Assembly: GCA_963700635.1 (NCBI GenBank)
Contig: CAVOYH010000005.1
Location: 128,001 to 192,000, forward strand
DNA: 64,000 nt
Source of the DNA: an uncultured Bacteroidota bacterium
Lineage (GTDB): Bacteria > Bacteroidota > Ignavibacteria > UBA10030 > UBA6906
Direction of reading: 5' to 3'
Part shown: positions 25,198 through 34,961 of the stretch, piece after piece
Layout: the number at the start of each line of letters is the position of its first letter
Numbering within the stretch: position 1 is the stretch's first letter
Translations under genes and position numbers: made by a program
Notes under the pieces: model-generated
Told to the model about the DNA's origin: nothing
Database searches by the model: none
Seen by the model: only the letters and a program-made list of their open reading frames with translations

Positions 25198-25416
25198 GTG
25201 ATGTCAATTAAGAGTATTGATGGATGCATTGGATGTGGGACATGTATACAAACATGTCCTACAGATGTTATTCGTTTCGATCCAAATTCGAAAAAAGCAA
25301 TGATACAGTATCCGGAAGATTGTCAGATATGCCACTTGTGCCGTATGTATTGCCCGGTTGATGCCATCACTATTTCACCGGAGAAATCCATTCCGGTCAT
25401 AGTGTCATGGGGATAA
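25198..25416 (+). CDS. 2[4Fe-4S] ferredoxin (AprB-like)
   Basis: CIGCGTCIQTCP and CQICHLCRMYCP. Confidence 0.9.
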   Translation: MMSIKSIDGCIGCGTCIQTCPTDVIRFDPNSKKAMIQYPEDCQICHLCRMYCPVDAITISPEKSIPVIVSWG

Positions 25417-25420
25417 GATA

Positions 25421-26071
25421 ATGAATAAAGATTCAAAAATGGAATATCTGATTCCAGCAACAGGAATCCTTATCGGTCTGCCCGTGCTGTTTTGGGCATT
25501 AGGAGACTTTCCCCGTCGAACCGTTCTCAAGGAATCTCTTTCACTCCTCTTCATTCTGTCGTTTTCTCTGATGCTTGGACAGTTTTTTCTTGGCCGGGGT
25601 AACAGAAATATTGTCATGAGATTCAAAATGAGTACGGTTCTCAGATATCATAAGGTCATTGCGTATACCATTGTTGGTGTATTCTTGATGCATCCCTTTC
25701 TTATCGTGTTTCCCAGGTATTTTGAATCTGGAATTACCCCCATGGAGGCATTCACGACCATGATTACAACATATGAAAGCCTTGGTATAGTGTTCGGACT
25801 CAGTGCATGGTTCCTGTTGCTTGTGTTGGGATTAACATCTCTCCTCCGCAATAAGCTTCCACTGAAGTACAACCATTGGAGAGTCTTTCACGGCATTGTG
25901 TCTATGCTCTTTATATCAGTTGCCACGTATCATGCAATTGACCTTGGCCGTCACACAAATCTGGCTCTGTCCATGTACATGATTGTCCTGGCTGTGAGCG
26001 GAATACTGCTGCTGGTGAAGACCTATATCGTCAAACCATCGAAGGTAGGGAGTGGACATGGCCTTGAATAA
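25421..26071 (+). CDS. ferric reductase-like transmembrane (cytochrome b) protein
   Basis: About six TM helices; paired His residues (RYHK..LMHP; VFHG..TYHA); LTSLLRNKL..KYNHWR motif. Confidence 0.8.
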   Translation: MNKDSKMEYLIPATGILIGLPVLFWALGDFPRRTVLKESLSLLFILSFSLMLGQFFLGRGNRNIVMRFKMSTVLRYHKVIAYTIVGVFLMHPFLIVFPRYFESGITPMEAFTTMITTYESLGIVFGLSAWFLLLVLGLTSLLRNKLPLKYNHWRVFHGIVSMLFISVATYHAIDLGRHTNLALSMYMIVLAVSGILLLVKTYIVKPSKVGSGHGLE

Positions 26072-27821
26072 GAGTAAAGACACGCACGGTTTATCCAGGC
26101 GTCAGTTCATAGCGCTTTCTGGTGGTGCGGCAGGTTTTGCGACCCTTGTTGCAATGGGTGTACCGGCAGGGTGGGCGGAAAATGAACCGGATGTTGACGT
26201 GGACGCGATGAACACAAAAGAACATAGAACAGATGTACTCGTTATCGGCGGAGGAATGGCAGGATTGTTTGCGGCAGTAAAGGCTCACGATGCGGGATCC
26301 ACAGTGATGCTCGTTTCCAAAGGTCGCCTGGGCTCGTCGGGGATGACTCCGTTTGCCAAAGGAATATTCACGTACGATCCCGTGACTGAAAAACTTAGCC
26401 TTAATGAATTTGTTGATACTGTATCCCGCTCGGCCTTAGGGACCAACAATGCGGTTTATACCAGGCAAATGGCCGAACATTCGCTGGCGCGGGTACATGA
26501 GCTACGGGAATGGGGATTTTTTGATTCACCTCTTTACAATAATTCCTTTAGCAAGCCCATTACTGACCGAAAAATCCCTGTGATGGAGAGGATTGTAATT
26601 ACACATCTCATCAAAGAAGAAGGCAGGATTGCAGGTGCTGCAGGTTTTAGCCTCGATGAATCGAGGGTTCACATCTTCAATGCGAAGAGTGTTATTCTCT
26701 GTACGGGTGCAGGTGGTTTTAAACCTAATGGCTTTCCCATCTGTGATCTGACACATGACGGCACGATTATGGCGTACAACATCGGAGCAAAAGTCACAGG
26801 CAAAGAATGGAACGACGGCCATCCGGGTCAGGCAACGAATGCCGCGGATTGTTTCGGCGGTTGGCATGGCATGTTTGAGCGAACACCAGGAACAACCGGA
26901 GTTGAGGTCCATCACGATTTGGGCGTTGATCTGAATTACAAGGCATATATTGCCGGAAACCCGGTTGAAATGGGGCGTCCGGGGCAGGGCGATGAAAATC
27001 AGGTGCAAGGCGGCCCGTATGTTCCGGCTGAATTTAGACGAAGCGGACCTCCCCCAGGGGGAAGAAATAACGGCGATGGAGGAGAAAGACCCAGAGACGG
27101 TGGTGCGCCTCCTGGAATGCGTGGAGTTCCTGTGGGTGGATCTTCTGCCGGAATGTCTATTCACAAATCGGAAGGAATTGTACCGATTAATGACAAATGC
27201 GAATCGACTATTCCAGGTTTATATGCTGCTGGTGATTCGCTGGGATCCTATATGGCAGGAGCTATTTATACCCAGGTAGGATCTTCATTGGCGGGCTCTG
27301 CCGTCCAGGGTGCTATAGCGGCAGAGGCTGCGGCTGAATATTGTAAAAACACTGAAGCAGCGACTATTTCAACTTCCCAAATCAATAGAATAGAAGAAGA
27401 GATTCTCGCTCCATTGAAAAGGGAAGCTGGGTACAGTCCCGCCTGGGTAACTCAAACATTACAGAGCGTAATGATTCCTAACTTTGTCCTCTACATCAAA
27501 AAAGAGAACATGCTCAAAGCAGCGTTATCGTACGTTGAAGAGTTGAGGGATCACCACATGCCTTTACTGAGAGCCTCCGATATGCATGAGCTACGATTAG
27601 CCCATGAAACCAGGAACATGATTACAACCGCAGAAATGAAACTTAAAGCTTCACTTATGCGAAAAGAGAGCCGCTGTAGTCATTACCGACTCGATTATCC
27701 CGATGTAGACAATACCAATTGGGAAGCGTGGATCAACATCTACAAAGATGCTGATGGTACTATGCAATTTGAAAAGCAAGCGTTTGACACCTGGCCGGAT
27801 GGTAAGAAACTCATTATCTGA
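26058..27821 (+). CDS. Tat-exported FAD-dependent oxidoreductase, SdhA/FrdA/AprA superfamily
   Basis: SRRQFI twin-arginine signal, DVLVIGGGMAG, AKSVILCTGAGG, PGLYAAGD, RKESRCSHYRLDYP. Start GTG 26052 or ATG 26058. Confidence 0.85.
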   Translation: MALNKSKDTHGLSRRQFIALSGGAAGFATLVAMGVPAGWAENEPDVDVDAMNTKEHRTDVLVIGGGMAGLFAAVKAHDAGSTVMLVSKGRLGSSGMTPFAKGIFTYDPVTEKLSLNEFVDTVSRSALGTNNAVYTRQMAEHSLARVHELREWGFFDSPLYNNSFSKPITDRKIPVMERIVITHLIKEEGRIAGAAGFSLDESRVHIFNAKSVILCTGAGGFKPNGFPICDLTHDGTIMAYNIGAKVTGKEWNDGHPGQATNAADCFGGWHGMFERTPGTTGVEVHHDLGVDLNYKAYIAGNPVEMGRPGQGDENQVQGGPYVPAEFRRSGPPPGGRNNGDGGERPRDGGAPPGMRGVPVGGSSAGMSIHKSEGIVPINDKCESTIPGLYAAGDSLGSYMAGAIYTQVGSSLAGSAVQGAIAAEAAAEYCKNTEAATISTSQINRIEEEILAPLKREAGYSPAWVTQTLQSVMIPNFVLYIKKENMLKAALSYVEELRDHHMPLLRASDMHELRLAHETRNMITTAEMKLKASLMRKESRCSHYRLDYPDVDNTNWEAWINIYKDADGTMQFEKQAFDTWPDGKKLII

Positions 27822-27840
27822 ATTGCATGAGAATATCTGC

Positions 27841-27865
27841 GCAAGGTATTTGCCATATCATCGTC
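27841..27865 (+). promoter_or_regulatory. putative ECF promoter of the CotH gene
   Basis: GCAAGG-N14-TCGTC, same boxes and spacing as the 25143 site. Confidence 0.65.
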
Positions 27866-28044
27866 TTACATAAGTGAACACGCTGACCAACGCCCGCCGG
27901 GGGGAAAGTGATTGTGATGCCAACGGACTCACAATTCCGCACTCGCTCAATTGTGATTCTGACAATGTATCGGGGCGAATGCGGCGACACGTTGTATTCG
28001 ACTACACAGAATCCATGTGCCTTCAACCAACTAAAGAGGATCCA

Positions 28045-30333
28045 ATGAAAAGGATATATATGTCTCTGCTGATGATTCTTGTGAGCATTGGCGGGTTCAC
28101 AACAAACTCTTTTGCGCAAGAATTCTACGACATTAACACCATTCAGACTATTTCAATAACGTTTTCGCAAAGTAATTGGGACTATATGCTGGATACTGCC
28201 AAAGCCGGAAGCGATGGCTATATCATGGCACAATCAGTCAGCATAAATGGAACTCTGTTTGATAGTGTGGGCGTAAAATACAAAGGGAACAGCAGTTACA
28301 ATCCCAGCTACATTAAGAATCCATTCCATATTGAATTAGATACATACAAAGAACAGGATTATCAAAGTTACAAAGACATCAAGCTTAGTAATGTCTACAA
28401 GGATCCATCGTATTTGCGCGAAGTGCTCTCATATTCCATTCTGCGGCAGTATATGATTGCTCCATTATCAAACTATGCCAATGTTACCGTCAACGGAGCC
28501 TTACTCGGACTGTATGTGAGCTCCGAGTCCATCGGCAAAACATTTGTCAGCAAAAATTTCTATTCCAAAGATAATGCATTCTTCAAGTGCAGTCCGGTTG
28601 ATGGTGCCACTCCCGGAACAACCGCTATACCCAATCTGGTGTATCTGGGCCCCGACAGTGCGAGCTACTCTGAAGCATACGAAATAAAATCTGATTATGG
28701 ATGGATGGATTTACTCACGCTTATGAGCACACTTCAGAGCAATGTAGGCGCTATAGAAAATGTTCTGGATGTGGATAGAGCCTTGTGGATGCTCGCCTTT
28801 AATAACATTCTGGTGAATCTTGATAGTTATATAGGCGTATTTGCACAGAACTACTATTTGTATAAAGACAATACCGGACGTTTTAGTTGTGTGCTCTGGG
28901 ATTTTAATGAGTCGTTCGGAGTATTCAGCCAGACGGGAACAATTAATCTCCCGAATACGCCTGACAAAATTCAGATGACGCATTTGTTGCATGCCGGTGA
29001 CGCGAGCTGGCCGTTAGTACAAAAGCTGCTTTCCGTTCCTACGTATAAGAAGATGTACCTGGCACACTTGCATACAATCCTCACAGAAAACTTTTCAAAC
29101 AATAGTTATTATACGTTGGCGCAGTCAATACAACCAATAATTGATGCTGCGGTGCAGGCTGATCCAAATAGGTTTTTTACGTATCCGCAATACCAAAGCA
29201 ATCTTACAACAGAAGTAGGGTTCGGCCCGAATGCCGTTCCCGGCATTACAGCGTTGATGAATGGCAGAAACACCTACCTCTCTGGGCTTTCTGATTTTAC
29301 GAATACGAAACCAACGATCACCAGCGTCGCATCCAGTGACACAAATCCCAATGTAAATAGCACGATAGTTATTACTGCAAATGTAATTAATACAAACACA
29401 AATGCTGTCTACCTGGGGTATAGAGGGAATAAAGAACATAGATTCACAAAGATCCTCATGTATGATGACGGCGCTCATGGTGATGGTGCCGCGGGGGACA
29501 ATGTGTATGGTGTGTCAATTATTGCAAGCAGTTCGCCACTGCAATACTACATCTATGCAGAAAATAATAATGTTGGAATGTTCTCGCCGGTTAGGGCTGA
29601 ACATGAATTCTATTCGATCACTGTTAATACAACAAGTAGCAGTGATATCGTGATGAATGAAATATATTCAAGAGGCACCACGGCAGATCCTGACTGGATA
29701 GAGATGTATAACGCATCGTCGTCACCAATCGATATCAGTGGTTACAAAATCTATGACAGCGGTGGTGAAGGCGGCACGAAACCCAAGAAAGAACTTCCTG
29801 CCGGGTCCGTAGTTCCTTCTCACGGTGTGTTCGTTGTCGTTACAGACGACACATCCGCAAGTGGTTTCGGGCTTTCAAGTTCTGGCGAGAAAGTGTGGTT
29901 GGAGAACACTGCAGGCGAAGTCATCGACTCGGTGACCTTCCCGGCACTTACCGTCTCCCAGTCCTATGGAAGAATGCCGGATGGAGGCGTGTGGCAAACA
30001 TTGGGTACGATTACACGCGGTGGATCGAATGGTTCACCTACCGGAATTACGGACGACGCATTGAACATAACAACCTATAAGCTTTCCCAAAACTATCCGA
30101 ATCCGTTCAATCCATCAACAACAATCAGCTATCAGCTTGCGGCGGAAGGTCACGCCACATTAAAAGTGTACAACCTGCTCGGGGAAGAAGTCGCTACACT
30201 TGTAAACGAACGCCTGGGCGCTGGATCGTTCACAACGGAATGGAACGCAGCACAATTGCCAAGCGGTATCTACTTCTACCGCCTGCAAGCGGGGTCATTC
30301 TCGGAAACGAAGAGGTTGATACTCTTGAAGTAG
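28045..30333 (+). CDS. secreted CotH-family kinase with lamin-tail domain and T9SS C-terminal domain
   Basis: VGVKYKGNSS, DPSYLRE, GLYVSSE, NLDSY..QNYYLY, WDFNESFG; MNEI..DWIEMYN (LTD); QNYPNPFNPST. GAGGA RBS before ATG 28045. Confidence 0.88.
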   Translation: MKRIYMSLLMILVSIGGFTTNSFAQEFYDINTIQTISITFSQSNWDYMLDTAKAGSDGYIMAQSVSINGTLFDSVGVKYKGNSSYNPSYIKNPFHIELDTYKEQDYQSYKDIKLSNVYKDPSYLREVLSYSILRQYMIAPLSNYANVTVNGALLGLYVSSESIGKTFVSKNFYSKDNAFFKCSPVDGATPGTTAIPNLVYLGPDSASYSEAYEIKSDYGWMDLLTLMSTLQSNVGAIENVLDVDRALWMLAFNNILVNLDSYIGVFAQNYYLYKDNTGRFSCVLWDFNESFGVFSQTGTINLPNTPDKIQMTHLLHAGDASWPLVQKLLSVPTYKKMYLAHLHTILTENFSNNSYYTLAQSIQPIIDAAVQADPNRFFTYPQYQSNLTTEVGFGPNAVPGITALMNGRNTYLSGLSDFTNTKPTITSVASSDTNPNVNSTIVITANVINTNTNAVYLGYRGNKEHRFTKILMYDDGAHGDGAAGDNVYGVSIIASSSPLQYYIYAENNNVGMFSPVRAEHEFYSITVNTTSSSDIVMNEIYSRGTTADPDWIEMYNASSSPIDISGYKIYDSGGEGGTKPKKELPAGSVVPSHGVFVVVTDDTSASGFGLSSSGEKVWLENTAGEVIDSVTFPALTVSQSYGRMPDGGVWQTLGTITRGGSNGSPTGITDDALNITTYKLSQNYPNPFNPSTTISYQLAAEGHATLKVYNLLGEEVATLVNERLGAGSFTTEWNAAQLPSGIYFYRLQAGSFSETKRLILLK

Positions 30334-30392: not shown

Positions 30393-30479
30393 GATCATGT
30401 GCTCTTAGCATTGTAATGGCGACACCTCCGGCAACAGATGACTTTACTCACTGTGAGGAATGCGAAGAGCACATTGATC
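30393..30479. other. long intergenic inverted repeat / stem-loop
   Basis: GATCATGTGCTCTTAGCATT pairs with AATGCGAAGAGCACATTGATC (one mismatch, one bulge), enclosing 46 nt. Confidence 0.6.
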
Positions 30480-30550: not shown

Positions 30551-31555
30551 CTATAGAGTCCTGGTGGTCAAAGGTGCGCCGGAATGGAAATTCTCCACTC
30601 CAGGATCGCCCGCTGCCGACCGCCCGGCGAGCAGCTCTCCTCCCAGTCTTTCCAGCTGCAGACGCCTGCCAATCTCAACCTCGCGCGCCAGGCTCGTAAC
30701 AATGTTTGCAAGGTCGTACCGGGAAGCATGTGCATCCAGTGAGGCGAGCGCCCTGGCGGTTACTGCGTTTCCCACAAGAGGGCGCAACCGTTTCCTTGTG
30801 CGTTCAATGTTCCCCTGGCAACTCTGCCGGGTGCTTTCCTGAATTGAGCGCATCACACGTTCTTGAATGTCTCGGGATTCGTCGATTTCGCGCTCCAGAA
30901 AGTCCCTGAGCATCCATTCCGGATGGCCGTAATGGACACATTGTCGCTTTCCGGAGTCAATCTCAATAACCGCGCCGTTGGAACAGACGTACCGGAGGAC
31001 AAAATGGTGGACTGAGAGAGCACGGAATCCCGTTTCCGAGTTGAACACATTGTGCCCCATGCCGCACTCATCGCCCGGAACCGGGAACACGCGCGCACGG
31101 ATAGTTGTATACACTCTCATGAAGAAGTCGTTTCGCGATATGCTGGCAACCCCGAGTGACCGGGCCAGCTCAAGTACTTCAAGATCAGAAATGTTGTTGT
31201 ATCTGCCGCTGGTGATCGAAAGTGCCTCTCCATTTTCCACCTTCAACGTCACGTCTCCGCTCCTGATGTTGAGGAGAAAATCGTTCAGGATTGAACTCAC
31301 GGTGTCAATGTTCAGCCGACCCAAATGGCGTGCCGGAAACCCGTACCATTTCAGGAGCTTGTGCAAAAAAACCTCCCTCACCGGGTATTCCGACACGCCA
31401 CCCCTGGACATTCGGAGAAGCAACATGGTGCCGTCATTCACGACATGCAGGTTCTGCGGATCCACCTGGAACTCTTGCAGCCGGCGGTCCCTGAGAAAGT
31501 CCACGACTTCTTCGGGAGCCGCTTCTGCGAACGTCTGACCATGCCTCAGATTCAC
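30551..31555 (-). CDS. hypothetical protein, DUF932/DUF945-like
   Basis: NSETG..ALSV...LRYVCSNG resembles the NS..G...RLVC.NG motif; GTG start overlaps the upstream stop. Confidence 0.55.
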   Translation of the reverse strand: MNLRHGQTFAEAAPEEVVDFLRDRRLQEFQVDPQNLHVVNDGTMLLLRMSRGGVSEYPVREVFLHKLLKWYGFPARHLGRLNIDTVSSILNDFLLNIRSGDVTLKVENGEALSITSGRYNNISDLEVLELARSLGVASISRNDFFMRVYTTIRARVFPVPGDECGMGHNVFNSETGFRALSVHHFVLRYVCSNGAVIEIDSGKRQCVHYGHPEWMLRDFLEREIDESRDIQERVMRSIQESTRQSCQGNIERTRKRLRPLVGNAVTARALASLDAHASRYDLANIVTSLAREVEIGRRLQLERLGGELLAGRSAAGDPGVENFHSGAPLTTRTL

Positions 31556-32484
31556 CGTTGTTTTGCTCCCTTTGCTCCTTCCTTTTTCCGGAACGCCGCA
31601 AGGTGTATCTGATGGGTATTATAGACCAGTTCAAACCCGGTCACACCTTCCGAATCAAAACGCCGGTCCGTTCCCACGCCGGCCCCGGGGGCTTCGTGGT
31701 ACTGCTGTTCTTCGAGGAGATCGAGGAATTCCAGAGTCCGGTAGCGCGCCTCGGCTTCGGAAAGTTTTGCCTTGGTAGGCCGTTTAGCACCTGCCTCGAA
31801 TGCGGCCCCGCGGAGGAGCTTCGGGAAGTATTCCGCATACACGTCACGGCGGTTAAACACGTCAACCCCGACAAGCGTCTTGCCGAAGAATACCGCCAGC
31901 CCGTTGGCATTTTCGCTCAGCGTAAAATGACTTATAAACGTGGTGAATTCGTCCGCCTTCTCTTTGAAGACATCCGACAGGTTGGATGTCGGAGAGGCGA
32001 CCTTATGAAGATCCTGATACTCGCTTACATGGTTCCAGATCTTTGTCTGATCAGCCGAAAAACCCCGTTTCTGCTGCAGACTCATCAGGATCTGGCCGGC
32101 CTTGTCCGAACGCATTTTTGAAGGCGCCGAATAGTCGGTTCCCGTAAAACCCTTTGATGCATGATGCCAGCGGCCGTGTTCCACGCAGCTCACGGGGACC
32201 TGTGACTTGGACTCCGGCGCGAGCAGCATCGATGTGTTGATGACCCTGTTCTGTTTCGCCCCCGCGAGGATGTCGCCGTCCATCAGAAACACGAAGTGGG
32301 GTGAATGGTTCAGGACGAAGATGGAATTGACGTTGCCCGATTCGCTCAGTTCTTTCGCCTCGATAAGGTTCTCCGAAAGAGCCCTCCCGCACCCGATGTA
32401 AGCAAATGAGTCCTGCCCCGATGTGGCCAGCTGGATGATGCCAAGATTACCCTGTACCGTAAAACCGGTGATGTGCGTTTGCAT
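31552..32484 (-). CDS. ARPP-1 / DUF6569 family protein
   Basis: ELSESGNVN...N....VFLMDGDILAGAKQNRVIN....VPVSCVEHGRW and DQTKIWNHV. AAAGGAGGGG RBS before ATG 32484. Confidence 0.8.
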   Translation of the reverse strand: MQTHITGFTVQGNLGIIQLATSGQDSFAYIGCGRALSENLIEAKELSESGNVNSIFVLNHSPHFVFLMDGDILAGAKQNRVINTSMLLAPESKSQVPVSCVEHGRWHHASKGFTGTDYSAPSKMRSDKAGQILMSLQQKRGFSADQTKIWNHVSEYQDLHKVASPTSNLSDVFKEKADEFTTFISHFTLSENANGLAVFFGKTLVGVDVFNRRDVYAEYFPKLLRGAAFEAGAKRPTKAKLSEAEARYRTLEFLDLLEEQQYHEAPGAGVGTDRRFDSEGVTGFELVYNTHQIHLAAFRKKEGAKGAKQR

Positions 32485-32622
32485 GACCCCTCCTTTGGTT
32501 ATGATCAAGATACGCAGGAGAGTTTGCCGGAGAGGCTCATTGGATGATCCTTTTGGGCCTTGCTGGGAATTGCCCTTGGTTGCGGGATTTACGTAATTAA
32601 CGCAAACCATCAGGGGGCATCC

Positions 32623-33480
32623 ATGCTTGAAGTTCAGACCAAAGTGAAGCGGCAGATCGAAATACTGGGACTCGCCATCAACAATTCCGCCGGTCTCAAG
32701 GACACGGACTTCGCCGTCATGTTTGAGCGGGATGTCCCGACAATCAAACGTGACATGCAGGAACTGCGGAGCCTGGGGATCGATGTGCATTCAGAACGCG
32801 CCCGGGGGATCTGCCTCTCGGGCCGGCTTGATCCAAAAATCCTCAGGGAGATGATCCTGCAGTACCTGGGTATCTGTAACTCCGCCGGCGGAGTTGACAA
32901 GGCCACGGCCCTTCTGGTGAAACAGCTCAAGGAAAAAGCGCTGAGCCATCTGGTGACGCTGCAGCGGTGTATCGACAGCTCCACGATTGCGGTGATCGAT
33001 TATCAGAAGGACGACGTGCAAATCGAACACGGGCGGGAAATTCAGCCGCTTCTGATATTCAGCAGCGAACGGTACTGGCGAATCCTGGCTGTCAACGAGG
33101 GAAAAATCAAACAGTACATCCTGAACAAGATCATAAATGTCCGACCCACGACCAGACATTTCAAAAAAGTCCCGCAGGAACAGATTGACGGGATGTTTGA
33201 ACATTCATTCAAAAGCTGGATCGGCACGGATCTCTTTCAGGTGAGAATCCGGCTCGCGAAAGTGTGGGCTGACCGTCTGAAACCGCGCCGAATGATGGAA
33301 ACTGAAGTCATCACCGAAAATGACGATGGGTCCGTGGATTTTGTTACCACGGTGAACTCGCTGGAGGAGGTCGCCGGGTGGGTGGTAAGCAGAGGCGAGG
33401 GAGTCACGGTGCTCGAACCTCCCCGGCTCAGGGAGATGGTCAAAGAGCTGGCCAGAGGGGCGCTGGATAACTACCGATGA
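32623..33480 (+). CDS. HTH-WYL-WCX transcriptional regulator
   Basis: N-terminal HTH (TIKRDMQELR), WYL-like core (REIQPL..YWRILA..IKQYILNKI), WCX tail (WVVSRGEGVTVLEPPRLR). ATG 32623. Confidence 0.85.
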   Translation: MLEVQTKVKRQIEILGLAINNSAGLKDTDFAVMFERDVPTIKRDMQELRSLGIDVHSERARGICLSGRLDPKILREMILQYLGICNSAGGVDKATALLVKQLKEKALSHLVTLQRCIDSSTIAVIDYQKDDVQIEHGREIQPLLIFSSERYWRILAVNEGKIKQYILNKIINVRPTTRHFKKVPQEQIDGMFEHSFKSWIGTDLFQVRIRLAKVWADRLKPRRMMETEVITENDDGSVDFVTTVNSLEEVAGWVVSRGEGVTVLEPPRLREMVKELARGALDNYR

Positions 33481-34961
33481 CTTTTCTCTCCAAGTCCAAA
33501 TACCTTGCCGGTCTGCAGTGCTCCAAACTCCTCTGGTATCACTACAATGCGAAGAAAACAATCCCCGCACCGGATGCGGCCACCCAGGCCGTTTTTGATC
33601 AAGGTCACCAGGTCGGGGAACTCGCAACATCGTTATTCCCCGGCGGCATAGAGGTGGCAAAAGGTACTCTCGACTTCGCCCGCGTGCTGTCACAATCCCT
33701 CGATGCGGTCAAGCTCCGCAAACCTCTCTTCGAGGCCGGGTTCTCCTACAAGAGTGCGTTTGCGCGGGTTGACATCCTGAATCCGGTTGGTATGGACGAG
33801 TGGGATATCATAGAGGTCAAAAGTTCGACGGAAGTAAAAGACGTCAACCTTCATGACCTTGCGCTTCAGCGGTACACCTATGAGGGAGCCGGTCTCAAGG
33901 TGCGTCACTGCGTGTTGATGTACATCAACAATGCCTACGTAAGGCGGGGTGCTGTCGAACCCCGGGAGCTCTTTATTCAAGAGGATGTTACAGAGCGGGT
34001 GGCAGAACTCACACCCGGGGTTGAGGCCAACCTGGAGCGTATGGCCGGCGTTATACGCCTCGCACAGCATCCCGATATCCACATCGGGCCCCAGTGCAGC
34101 TCTCCCTATGAATGTCCGCTTCAAGCGATGTGCTGGAAGTTCCTGCCTGATCACAATGTGTTCACCCTCCACCGGTTGGGCGCACGGGCATTCGATTTGC
34201 TCGGTCAGGGCGTAGAAAAGATTGCAGAGATTCCCGTGGACTACTCGCTGAGCAACGCACAGCAAATCCAGCAAGAAGCTGTCAGGCGCGGACAACCCGG
34301 CATCAACAGGCCGGCAATCGCCTCCTTCCTGAAGACTCTGAAATACCCTCTGTATTTTCTTGACTTCGAGACATTCGGGACCGCAATACCTCAATTTGAC
34401 GGTGTTCGGCCATACCAGCAGGTACCCTTCCAGTTTTCACTGCATATTCTCAGATCTGAAGGGGCAACTCCCGAACATCACTCGTATCTGGCGGACGGCA
34501 CGGCGGATCCCCGCATCGAGATCGTATCCCGCCTGAAGAAACTCCTGGACTCGGAGGGATCCATCGTCTGCTATAACGCACCGTTTGAGCGTGGACGTAT
34601 CAGGGAATCCTGCGAAACATACCCGCAACACATGCCGTGGTGGCAGGAAACTGAACCCCGGTTTGTGGATCTCCTGGAGCCCTTTCGCTCGTTCCACTAT
34701 TATCATCCTGACCAGCAAGGAAGCGCATCGATGAAGATGGTCCTTCCGGTCCTGACCGGGAAGAGTTACGAAGGGATGGCGATCGCTGATGGAGGAGCCG
34801 CGAGCAGGGAATACGTACGGGTGACCTTTGGAAGCGTACCTGCCGCAGAGAGAGAGAGAATCAGAACACAGTTGGAGGAGTACTGCGCGCTGGACACACT
34901 GGGGATGATTCACATTGTGAATGCTCTGACGATGCTCTCGGGCGAAACTCCTCGAGCGTAA
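33477..34961 (+). CDS. DUF2779 family protein (Cas4-like PD-(D/E)XK domain + RNase H-like exonuclease domain)
   Basis: LSKSKY...QC.K.LW, RVDIL..IIEVKSST, CSSPYECP...C, YFLDFET, QVPFQFSLH, YCALDT. Overlaps the WYL stop (ATGA). Confidence 0.85.
   Translation: MTFLSKSKYLAGLQCSKLLWYHYNAKKTIPAPDAATQAVFDQGHQVGELATSLFPGGIEVAKGTLDFARVLSQSLDAVKLRKPLFEAGFSYKSAFARVDILNPVGMDEWDIIEVKSSTEVKDVNLHDLALQRYTYEGAGLKVRHCVLMYINNAYVRRGAVEPRELFIQEDVTERVAELTPGVEANLERMAGVIRLAQHPDIHIGPQCSSPYECPLQAMCWKFLPDHNVFTLHRLGARAFDLLGQGVEKIAEIPVDYSLSNAQQIQQEAVRRGQPGINRPAIASFLKTLKYPLYFLDFETFGTAIPQFDGVRPYQQVPFQFSLHILRSEGATPEHHSYLADGTADPRIEIVSRLKKLLDSEGSIVCYNAPFERGRIRESCETYPQHMPWWQETEPRFVDLLEPFRSFHYYHPDQQGSASMKMVLPVLTGKSYEGMAIADGGAASREYVRVTFGSVPAAERERIRTQLEEYCALDTLGMIHIVNALTMLSGETPRA

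Follow-up and report, generated by a model that had tools for sequence, protein, structure and literature searches.

Introduction

The WYL regulator DriD of Caulobacter crescentus, for which a structure is available (8tp8; PMC10853764), binds at a fixed distance from the -10 element in promoters that have no -35 element, and it activates the operon divergent from its own gene (PMC13004042). DdaA, from Acinetobacter and other Moraxellaceae, recognises the box CGWCA-N5-TGWCG and activates both repair and defence genes (PMC12392091, PMC13010146). CapW and BrxR are repressors and share the motif RWHVR (PMC11662680). Iyer et al. (2022; PMC9503650) reported the pairing of ARPP with WYL, and proposed that an SRAP-like cysteine of ARPP acts on sugars. 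Here we describe a locus at positions 30551-34961 of a 64,000-nucleotide stretch of DNA (the window; contig CAVOYH010000005.1, assembly GCA_963700635.1) from an uncultured Bacteroidota bacterium of the Ignavibacteria. In this locus, genes for a WYL regulator and a DUF2779 nuclease diverge from genes for ARPP-1 and a DUF932-like protein.

In Ignavibacteria-related Bacteroidota the locus is probably central to a WYL regulon of the DriD/DdaA type, with ARPP-1 and the DUF932-like protein as activated genes. The trio is real and conserved and is probably WYL-activated, and the distinctive result is the ARPP-DUF932 partnership. The pairing of ARPP with WYL is already known, PMC9503650 being the only record of it found in the literature searched. 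A sequence-only reading that called the locus undescribed was to that extent mistaken; no earlier description of the operator, the regulon or the ARPP-DUF932 partnership was found in that literature, subscription papers aside.

A conserved putative operator and its promoter

The two gene pairs each have a 4-bp overlap (GTGA at 31552-31555 for ARPP-1 and the DUF932-like gene, ATGA at 33477-33480 for WYL and DUF2779) and are separated by a divergent spacer of 138 bp (32485-32622), an arrangement that the sequence-only reading had described correctly. That reading overlooked a 17-bp palindrome with an accompanying -10 element in the spacer. The palindrome, the putative WYL operator, lies at 32534-32550 and reads GGATCA-TCCAA-TGAGCC on the minus strand, the family consensus being RTATCA-N5-TGAKAC. 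The comparison set consisted of 32 WYL-divergent spacers, from which the removal of three duplicates and one other left 28. GTATCA-N5-TGATAC is found within 2 mismatches in 27 of the 28, against a mean of 0.24 and a maximum of 3 in shuffled sequences, the consensus having been derived from the same spacers on which it was scored. A TAnnnT hexamer follows toward the ARPP/DUF932-like side in every spacer, at 21 nt (19 spacers) or 22 nt (9 spacers), and is found at the same spacing toward WYL in only 1 of the 28. In the window the hexamer is TATCTT (32507-32512, minus strand), 21 nt past the operator. There is no -35 consensus and no sigma-70 consensus promoter facing ARPP in the window. The ARPP-1 ribosome-binding site, as read from the sequence, is AAAGGAGG (32489-32496, minus strand).

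Genome-wide, 24 palindrome matches were scored, and the -10 hexamer was present in the 2 that adjoin a WYL gene and in 0 of the 22 elsewhere. The palindrome alone was rejected as a genome-wide predictor, since it matches in 49 of 61 related genomes, and only the version that includes the -10 is informative. This composite pattern gave 38 matches in the 18 WYL-bearing relatives (16 of which were positive) and 18 matches in the 43 others, many matches being the local sites that define the pattern; its reversed control gave 13 over all 61. In the window's own genome (G000) the best composite site is the window's operator, at 29.7 bits compared to a reversed-genome maximum of 17.9.

The conserved geometry is, as far as the alignments can tell, that of a DriD/DdaA-type activator, and the WYL protein very probably binds the box and activates the ARPP-1/DUF932-like operon, which supports the WYL control proposed for that operon in the sequence-only reading. 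Three points count against this conclusion. With 3 mismatches, the window's operator departs further from the consensus than any other in the set; the composite pattern had to be broadened before it would include this site; and the compared genomes are kin, so that the counts are not independent.

The WYL regulator

The WYL gene (32623-33480, plus strand) encodes a protein of 285 residues with the winged helix-turn-helix (wHTH), WYL and WCX architecture of DriD/DdaA-type activators. Pfam detects WCX (residues 205-281, E 5e-17), with HTH_11 (10-62) and WYL (109-174) falling below the cut-off. When the family profile is compared with solved structures, the best match is DriD (8tp8, E 3e-14) and the next is PafBC (E 8e-9). 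T40, R43 and D44 of the recognition helix are invariant among 24 homologues. The likeness to DriD extends to the fixed distance from the -10, the lack of a -35 and the placing of the site in a bidirectional promoter whose activated operon lies opposite the regulator (PMC9186387, PMC10853764, PMC13004042). However, the DriD box is ATACGAC-N7-GTCGTAT, DriD is longer at 327 residues, and the profile match spans the WYL-WCX part only.

DdaA is likened to the window's WYL protein by architecture, box and targets, its sequence not having been compared directly. The two share wHTH-WYL-WCX and an N5-spaced palindrome with a TCA/TGA-compatible core; in both cases the targets mix repair (recA) and defence (CRISPR, restriction-modification) genes, and the lineage is largely without canonical lexA. 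They differ in phylum and in the outer bases of the box. DdaA is a core gene, whereas the WYL gene here has a patchy distribution (in 71 of the 251 genomes sampled from the class), and among 10 WYL-bearing genomes only 2 have recA as a target, the constant target being ARPP/DUF932-like. Orthology with either DriD or DdaA was rejected, the box differing from both and full-length strong matches to the WYL protein being confined to the window's class in a 301-genome sample of the phylum.

Most residues with which DriD contacts single-stranded DNA (ssDNA) appear to have conservative counterparts. Y168, R178, Y192 and K202 correspond to Y127 (by spacing only), R138, Y151/W152 and K161, while R204 becomes K163 and W206 becomes Y165 (Y or F in the family). 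The exception is R207, which corresponds to I166 and is L, H, I or Y in the family. The comparison makes ssDNA a likely but not a sure ligand. Against it, the ligand may be something other than ssDNA, because the R207 counterpart is not conserved, R204 is K, W206 is Y/F, and the mutation R207A impairs DriD (PMC9186387).

In a phylogenetic tree the window's WYL protein groups with those of WYL+DUF932 loci from other genera (99/97), apart from the solitary WYL proteins of its own genus. A site between esterase and prephenate dehydratase genes holds a WYL gene in a relative, G005, and none in G000. Since the window's WYL groups outside its genus, and since the site occupied in G005 is empty in G000, the sequences indicate that the WYL module moves between genomes.

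The conserved unit

A DUF932-like profile identified 32 genome loci, several of them short. WYL diverges from ARPP plus DUF932-like in 20 of these (with the two swapped in one), and DUF2779 is present in only 3. The remainder comprise WYL and DUF932-like without ARPP (7 loci), ARPP and DUF932-like with no visible WYL (2, one of which ends at a contig edge) and DUF932-like alone (3, one at a contig edge). Among the 61 relatives, and counting partial matches, ARPP was found in 11 genomes, DUF932-like in 7, WYL in 18 and DUF2779 in 16; in the 251-genome class sample WYL is present in 71, DUF2779 in 31 and both in 16. Metagenomic ARPP loci numbered 585, and the best 80, which are mostly distant (about 30%) and in many cases short, have WYL in 20, DUF2779 directly downstream in 3 and DUF932-like beside 2. 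On these counts the conserved unit is, at the sequence level, the trio of WYL, ARPP-1 and DUF932-like, with DUF2779 loosely attached, rather than the four-gene system that had been suggested. The ARPP-DUF932 pairing is specific to a clade. The homologous loci appear to come from Ignavibacteria-related Bacteroidota, except that L030 and L045 carry other labels. A prophage or viral origin of the module was not supported, viral contigs having given only partial DUF932 matches of 23-38% (5 loci) and one partial ARPP.

Several related loci have duplicated 3' ends of WYL, DUF932-like or DUF2779 some way downstream, cargo genes separating them from the intact gene (L043:2047-6121, L033:1-144, L015:17314-17436, L044:13815-14102, L144:11563-11873), a pattern suggesting that circular DNA has inserted at the 3' ends of genes.

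ARPP-1 and the DUF932-like protein

ARPP-1 (31552-32484, minus strand, ATG start) is the first gene of the operator-controlled operon and encodes 310 residues matching PF20208/DUF6569 (E 4e-80). The longest open reading frame (ORF) begins at 32790 and overlaps the WYL gene; the start was set at 32484 because homologues align from there. Across 94 homologues the residues K77-Q-N-R80, C100, E102, R105 and W106 are invariant, giving a C100-x-E-x-G-R-W motif, and C100 and Q78 are the family's invariant Cys and Gln. The AlphaFold2 model has a predicted local distance difference test score (pLDDT) of 91.9. It has no match in the PDB at E <= 0.001 (the best VIA Z was 4.7, and no assignment was made), and the ESM Atlas search gave no look-alike outside the ARPP family.

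The DUF932-like gene (30551-31555, minus strand, GTG start) encodes 334 residues. The Pfam DUF932 profile (PF06067) gives E 0.039 and 14.2 bits, short of the gathering cut-off of 23. The fold is nevertheless confirmed at the level of models, because Foldseek matches it to phage DUF932 models (probability 1.0, E 3e-16), phrog_1362 matches at E 2e-15, and it finds DUF932 clusters in the ESM Atlas at 0.97. ARPP-1, WCX and DUF2779 exceed their hidden Markov model cut-offs, while DUF932 fails by Pfam and holds by fold. The residues N172-S-E-T-G176, R188, C191, N193 and H208 are invariant, and the DUF932 motifs N-S-x-x-G and R-x2-C-x-N-G are present. The model has pLDDT 90.6 with the last 20 residues disordered, and it has no PDB match at E <= 0.001. 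Residues 24-117 resemble the OB folds of Teb1, Cdc13 and RPA (VIA Z 5.8, root-mean-square deviation about 3, about 85 residues aligned); this is below the level of trust, a point against the explanation proposed below, and no assignment was made. The idea that ARPP and the DUF932-like protein are homologues of each other was discarded (hhalign probability 0.07). It is worth adding that in L041:9063-16196 a DUF932-like gene is directly followed by one for a 1930-residue TmtA-like protein with a C-terminal DarT domain, and then by a Macro gene.

A complex of ARPP-1 with the DUF932-like protein was predicted with ipSAE 0.62 (runs 0.50, 0.62 and 0.67), compared to 0.00 for the best control. Contacts agree to at least 94%, and pLDDT of the partners does not fall below 79. 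Of 157 solved pairs 116 attained this mark, as did 2 of 215 mismatched pairs, counts that are only roughly valid with our own alignments. No like complex was found in the PDB, and it is therefore unlikely that the prediction passed by model memory. The predicted interface is a strand pairing of ARPP residues 89-95, just before C100, with residues 24-31 of the DUF932-like protein, the latter side being variable in sequence. From these models we consider it fairly probable that the two proteins bind each other. The complex is not obligatory, because ARPP and DUF932-like also occur apart.

The DUF2779 nuclease

The DUF2779 gene (33477-34961, plus strand) is translationally coupled to WYL and encodes 494 residues matching PF11074 (E 5e-41). 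It has a Cas4-like PD-(D/E)xK domain (C15, C207, C213 and C219; E86, D99 and E113-x-K115; Q131-x3-Y) followed by a DEDDy domain (D296, E298, D398, Y469 and D473), a reading that agrees with PMC3985635 and PMC13621843. These residues of both sites, including all four cysteines, are kept in 9 of 9 aligned homologues; judged by its residues, the protein is a dual nuclease with both catalytic sites intact. No match was found among PDB sequences. The Cas4-DEDD fusion MMSYN1_0389 (PMC13621843) likewise has both nuclease sites intact and a tyrosine at the DEDDh/y position, but it keeps only two of the Cas4-type cysteines and is quasi-essential, whereas the protein described here is accessory and linked to WYL.

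In the window DUF2779 has no operator of its own. Upstream regions of 30 of 33 DUF2779 matches were tested, and an operator-promoter was present 53-79 nt upstream in 3 of 16 loci from WYL-bearing genomes (G041, G414, G514) and in 0 of 14 from genomes without WYL. WYL lies within 10 kb of DUF2779 in 7 of the 16 genomes that have both (G000, G041, G042, G379, G449, G467, G518). From these counts, DUF2779 is linked to WYL far above chance, as a recurrent but loose associate. ARPP, DUF2779 and WYL genes are codirectional in L281:5935-9515 and L295:2310-6070, where the ARPP is distant and the WYL different, and this is an independent joining of three of the four families. C-terminal fragments of DUF2779 are found in several other genomes.

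The putative regulon beyond the local operon

In relatives the same operator-promoter precedes recA (G004, G022), recC-recB (G003, G005), an ARPP-recC-recB-recD operon (G001), sbcD/sbcC-like genes (G003, G005) and a cas3-cas5 region (G028). It also precedes several proteins of about 200-245 residues that have no assigned function, and other matches precede unrelated genes. Upstream of recA, in the 30 examined of 59 recA-matching genomes, a site was present in 2 of 10 with WYL and 0 of 20 without. Sites are also found directly after the WYL stop codon, facing the next gene, which is DUF2779 in L044 and REase-ARP in L048; in L050 a small gene intervenes before REase-ARP. In L049 the site faces a methylase accompanied by a type IIG restriction-modification system and GmrSD, in L144 AAA and then DUF2779, and in L147 HAD-AAA-ARG. 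Because it precedes recA, recCB, sbcDC-like genes, cas3 and DUF2779 in different relatives, we take the locus to be part of a patchy DNA-damage-plus-defence regulon, and not one fixed anti-phage system. The regulon appears to be fluid, with the same box standing ahead of repair, CRISPR or restriction-type genes in other genomes. Defence and repair genes abound near related loci, interspersed with many housekeeping genes, and together with the operator targets they agree with the repair or defence character that the sequence-only reading had suggested.

Behind some WYL genes there are arrays in which successive genes each have their own operator-promoter (L143:6800-16400, L145:1400-7300, L148:4200-6300), some of these lying in longer repeats of 57-143 nt. 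A family of about 200 residues repeatedly follows an operator or an operator-linked AAA ATPase (L206:120-725, L193:1043-1642, L199:6106-6732, L144:14449-15078, L147:569-1231, L143:13009-13698). It has no Pfam match, and PADLOC gave none for the L206 member.

Some results do not favour an extensive WYL regulon. G000 has just one further prominent site (C3:1466264, 23.8 bits), and neither recA nor recC has a site; the regulon is therefore small in this genome, and a global recA regulon was rejected for it. In G014 an operator precedes DUF2779 although WYL was not found with the query used. The second operator-promoter of G000 (G000:C3:1466005-1466264, L183) precedes a 65-residue hydrophobic ORF, a candidate small member of the regulon; a homologue (54%) lies inside the WYL-DUF932-YbjN locus of G019, also preceded by a weaker site. 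A near-identical operator and -10 was seen in three genomes of one family in which WYL was not found (G044:C5:29678, G060:C25:89424, G052:C2:494598), in two of them some 420-450 nt ahead of a DUF3943-type gene.

Proposed mechanism and alternatives

We propose that a nucleic-acid ligand, most likely ssDNA arising from DNA damage or incoming DNA, would enter the WYL/WCX pocket; ssDNA or DNA damage is more probably than otherwise the trigger. The WYL dimer would then bind the palindrome and recruit RNA polymerase to the ARPP-1/DUF932-like promoter, and the two products are predicted to form a heterocomplex by strand pairing. More speculatively, the DUF932-like subunit could hold damaged or single-stranded DNA while the invariant Cys100 site of ARPP works on a damaged sugar, either abasic or ADP-ribosylated, so that the DNA is protected or cleaned for repair. 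DUF2779 would be a two-ended exonuclease repeatedly recruited to the regulon, here co-transcribed with WYL instead of being driven by the operator; its cooperation with ARPP-1 and the DUF932-like protein is speculative. The fullest version, which we offer only tentatively, is that ARPP-1 and DUF932 form a two-subunit, cysteine-dependent machine acting on damaged or ADP-ribosylated ssDNA, as the main product of an SOS-independent WYL regulon of Ignavibacteria-related bacteria, into which repair and defence genes are drawn through operator capture and 3'-end insertion.

ARPP-1, DUF932 and DUF2779 are widespread families with no tested function in the literature found. No function for DUF932 was found there, although a plasmid DUF932 gene was mutated after phage exposure (10.1101/2025.06.20.660599). 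If the proposal is true, an ssDNA-acting ARPP-DUF932 machine would be the first biochemical role for DUF932 proteins, which are common on phages and plasmids. The operator, the activator and the predicted interface together provide a handle on the WYL ligand, on complex formation and on the role of the invariant cysteines. The findings further hint at a DNA-damage response in a lineage of which only 4 of 61 genomes have a canonical lexA above the cut-off, and they illustrate how a single WYL box serves repair genes in some genomes and defence genes in others.

It is possible, though we consider it unlikely, that the regulation is the same and the cargo instead defends against phages by countering viral ADP-ribosylation, as a reduced form of the ARG-centred systems, with WYL sensing ADP-ribose or a cyclic-nucleotide derivative and DUF2779 as back-up effector. 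WYL, ARPP, restriction endonucleases (REases) and TY-chaperones are listed in ARG systems (PMC9503650), where ARPP has the invariant Cys and Gln and forms a two-gene neighbourhood with WYL. Loci related to that of the window contain REase-ARP (L048, L050), YbjN/TY-chaperone (L023-L026) and ARG (L147), and ARG adjoins ARPP in L269, L284, L300 and L324. The DarT-domain fusion with Macro (L041), the restriction-modification, Druantia/Dpd-like, Zac and CRISPR genes of related loci and the altered ssDNA-contact arginines of WYL are in keeping with this. On the other hand, neither ARG nor a phosphatase is present among the four genes or five flanking ORFs (Pfam), PADLOC finds no known effector in the window, a partial ARG query has no match in G000, and the clearest targets in trans are repair genes. 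Iyer et al. model WYL as a negative regulator, whereas the promoter geometry here indicates activation. The main text of PMC9503650 does not mention DUF932, and the part of its supplement consulted mentions neither DUF932 nor DUF2779; Figure 7 or the rest may show DUF932 beside ARPP. The anti-ADP-ribosylation and damage-regulon explanations overlap, because DdaA controls both kinds of gene.

A further alternative, about as unlikely, concerns DUF2779, which could have come to lie behind WYL merely because insertions favour this place, with no functional tie to it, the degenerate operator of the window being in decay. Its presence in only 3 of 32 loci and its lack of an operator here fit such a history, as does the gene traffic evident from the duplicated 3' ends, and in 15 of 31 DUF2779-bearing genomes WYL is below the cut-off used. 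Yet the recurrent proximity (7 of 16 within 10 kb) and the operators in front of DUF2779 in G041, G414, G514, L044 and G014 argue for a genuine association. The same is true of the distant ARPP-DUF2779 pairs in L281, L295 and L297, followed by a WYL gene in L281 and L295, and all four ORFs in the window are intact with catalytic residues kept.

It is improbable that WYL is a repressor of BrxR/CapW type, with the palindrome overlapping the -35 region and blocking transcription until ssDNA releases it. BrxR and CapW genes typically diverge from defence-like neighbours and have a palindrome in the promoter (PMC11662680), and the box does abut the -35 position. But there is no -35 consensus toward ARPP, the 21-22 nt spacing is rigid, one-directional and of activator type, RWHVR is absent from the family (whose consensus is EGxWRLLA), and the profile is far nearer to DriD and PafBC, chains named BrxR or CapW giving only E 0.015-0.023. 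One WYL chain that is unnamed in the database (7qfz), which we take to be BrxR, gives E 2.5e-5. The regulator thus resembles the DriD/DdaA-type activators and would serve a scattered regulon, not repress a single system.

Finally, it is very improbable that the palindrome is bound by another factor, for instance the HTH-S24 (LexA-like) protein of the lineage. Of 61 genomes, 51 have an S24-domain match (the copy in G000 being HTH plus S24), and 18 composite matches, some conserved within one family, lie in genomes where WYL was not found. But the sites follow the WYL gene and not the near-universal S24, and they cluster around WYL, including directly after its stop codon. The HTH-S24 peptidase protein of G000 (G000:C3:396880-397530) is possibly a non-canonical LexA/CI-like repressor.

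Genomic setting

All four genes are single-copy in G000. Their GC content (0.545-0.558, and 0.63-0.69 at third codon positions) is like that of the genome (contigs 0.55-0.57), the low-GC stretch being the neighbouring block. The sequence-only reading placed the locus in an accessory area, which is correct as far as the sequences go: icd was matched in four genomes of the same genus, and in each of them the 1.5 kb ahead of this gene is occupied by different DNA. As had been expected, PADLOC 2.0 finds no named system among the four genes and no system-specific protein, the matches being limited to generic WYL models, a Cas3c match in the WYL region and Cas4 at E 0.0099. Since 24 flanking ORFs have no convincing PADLOC match, the window is not a defence island. 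No self-repeat, att-like sequence or gene-tail duplicate was found between 20 and 45 kb in the window, an Rfam scan of its 29-36 kb part gave zero families, and no sequencing run was found listed for the locus.

Next to the module, at 25-30 kb, there is a block of low GC (25198-30333, 0.44-0.49) containing a ferredoxin-like ORF, a ferric-reductase-like membrane protein, a flavoprotein exported by twin-arginine translocation and a CotH-LTD protein of the type IX secretion system, and this block looks separately acquired. The 211-nt gap after the DUF932-like stop codon is unique in the genome (folding z -2.1) and contains an inverted repeat of 16 bp (94%) around a loop of 46 nt at 30397-30474, possibly a terminator or processing hairpin.

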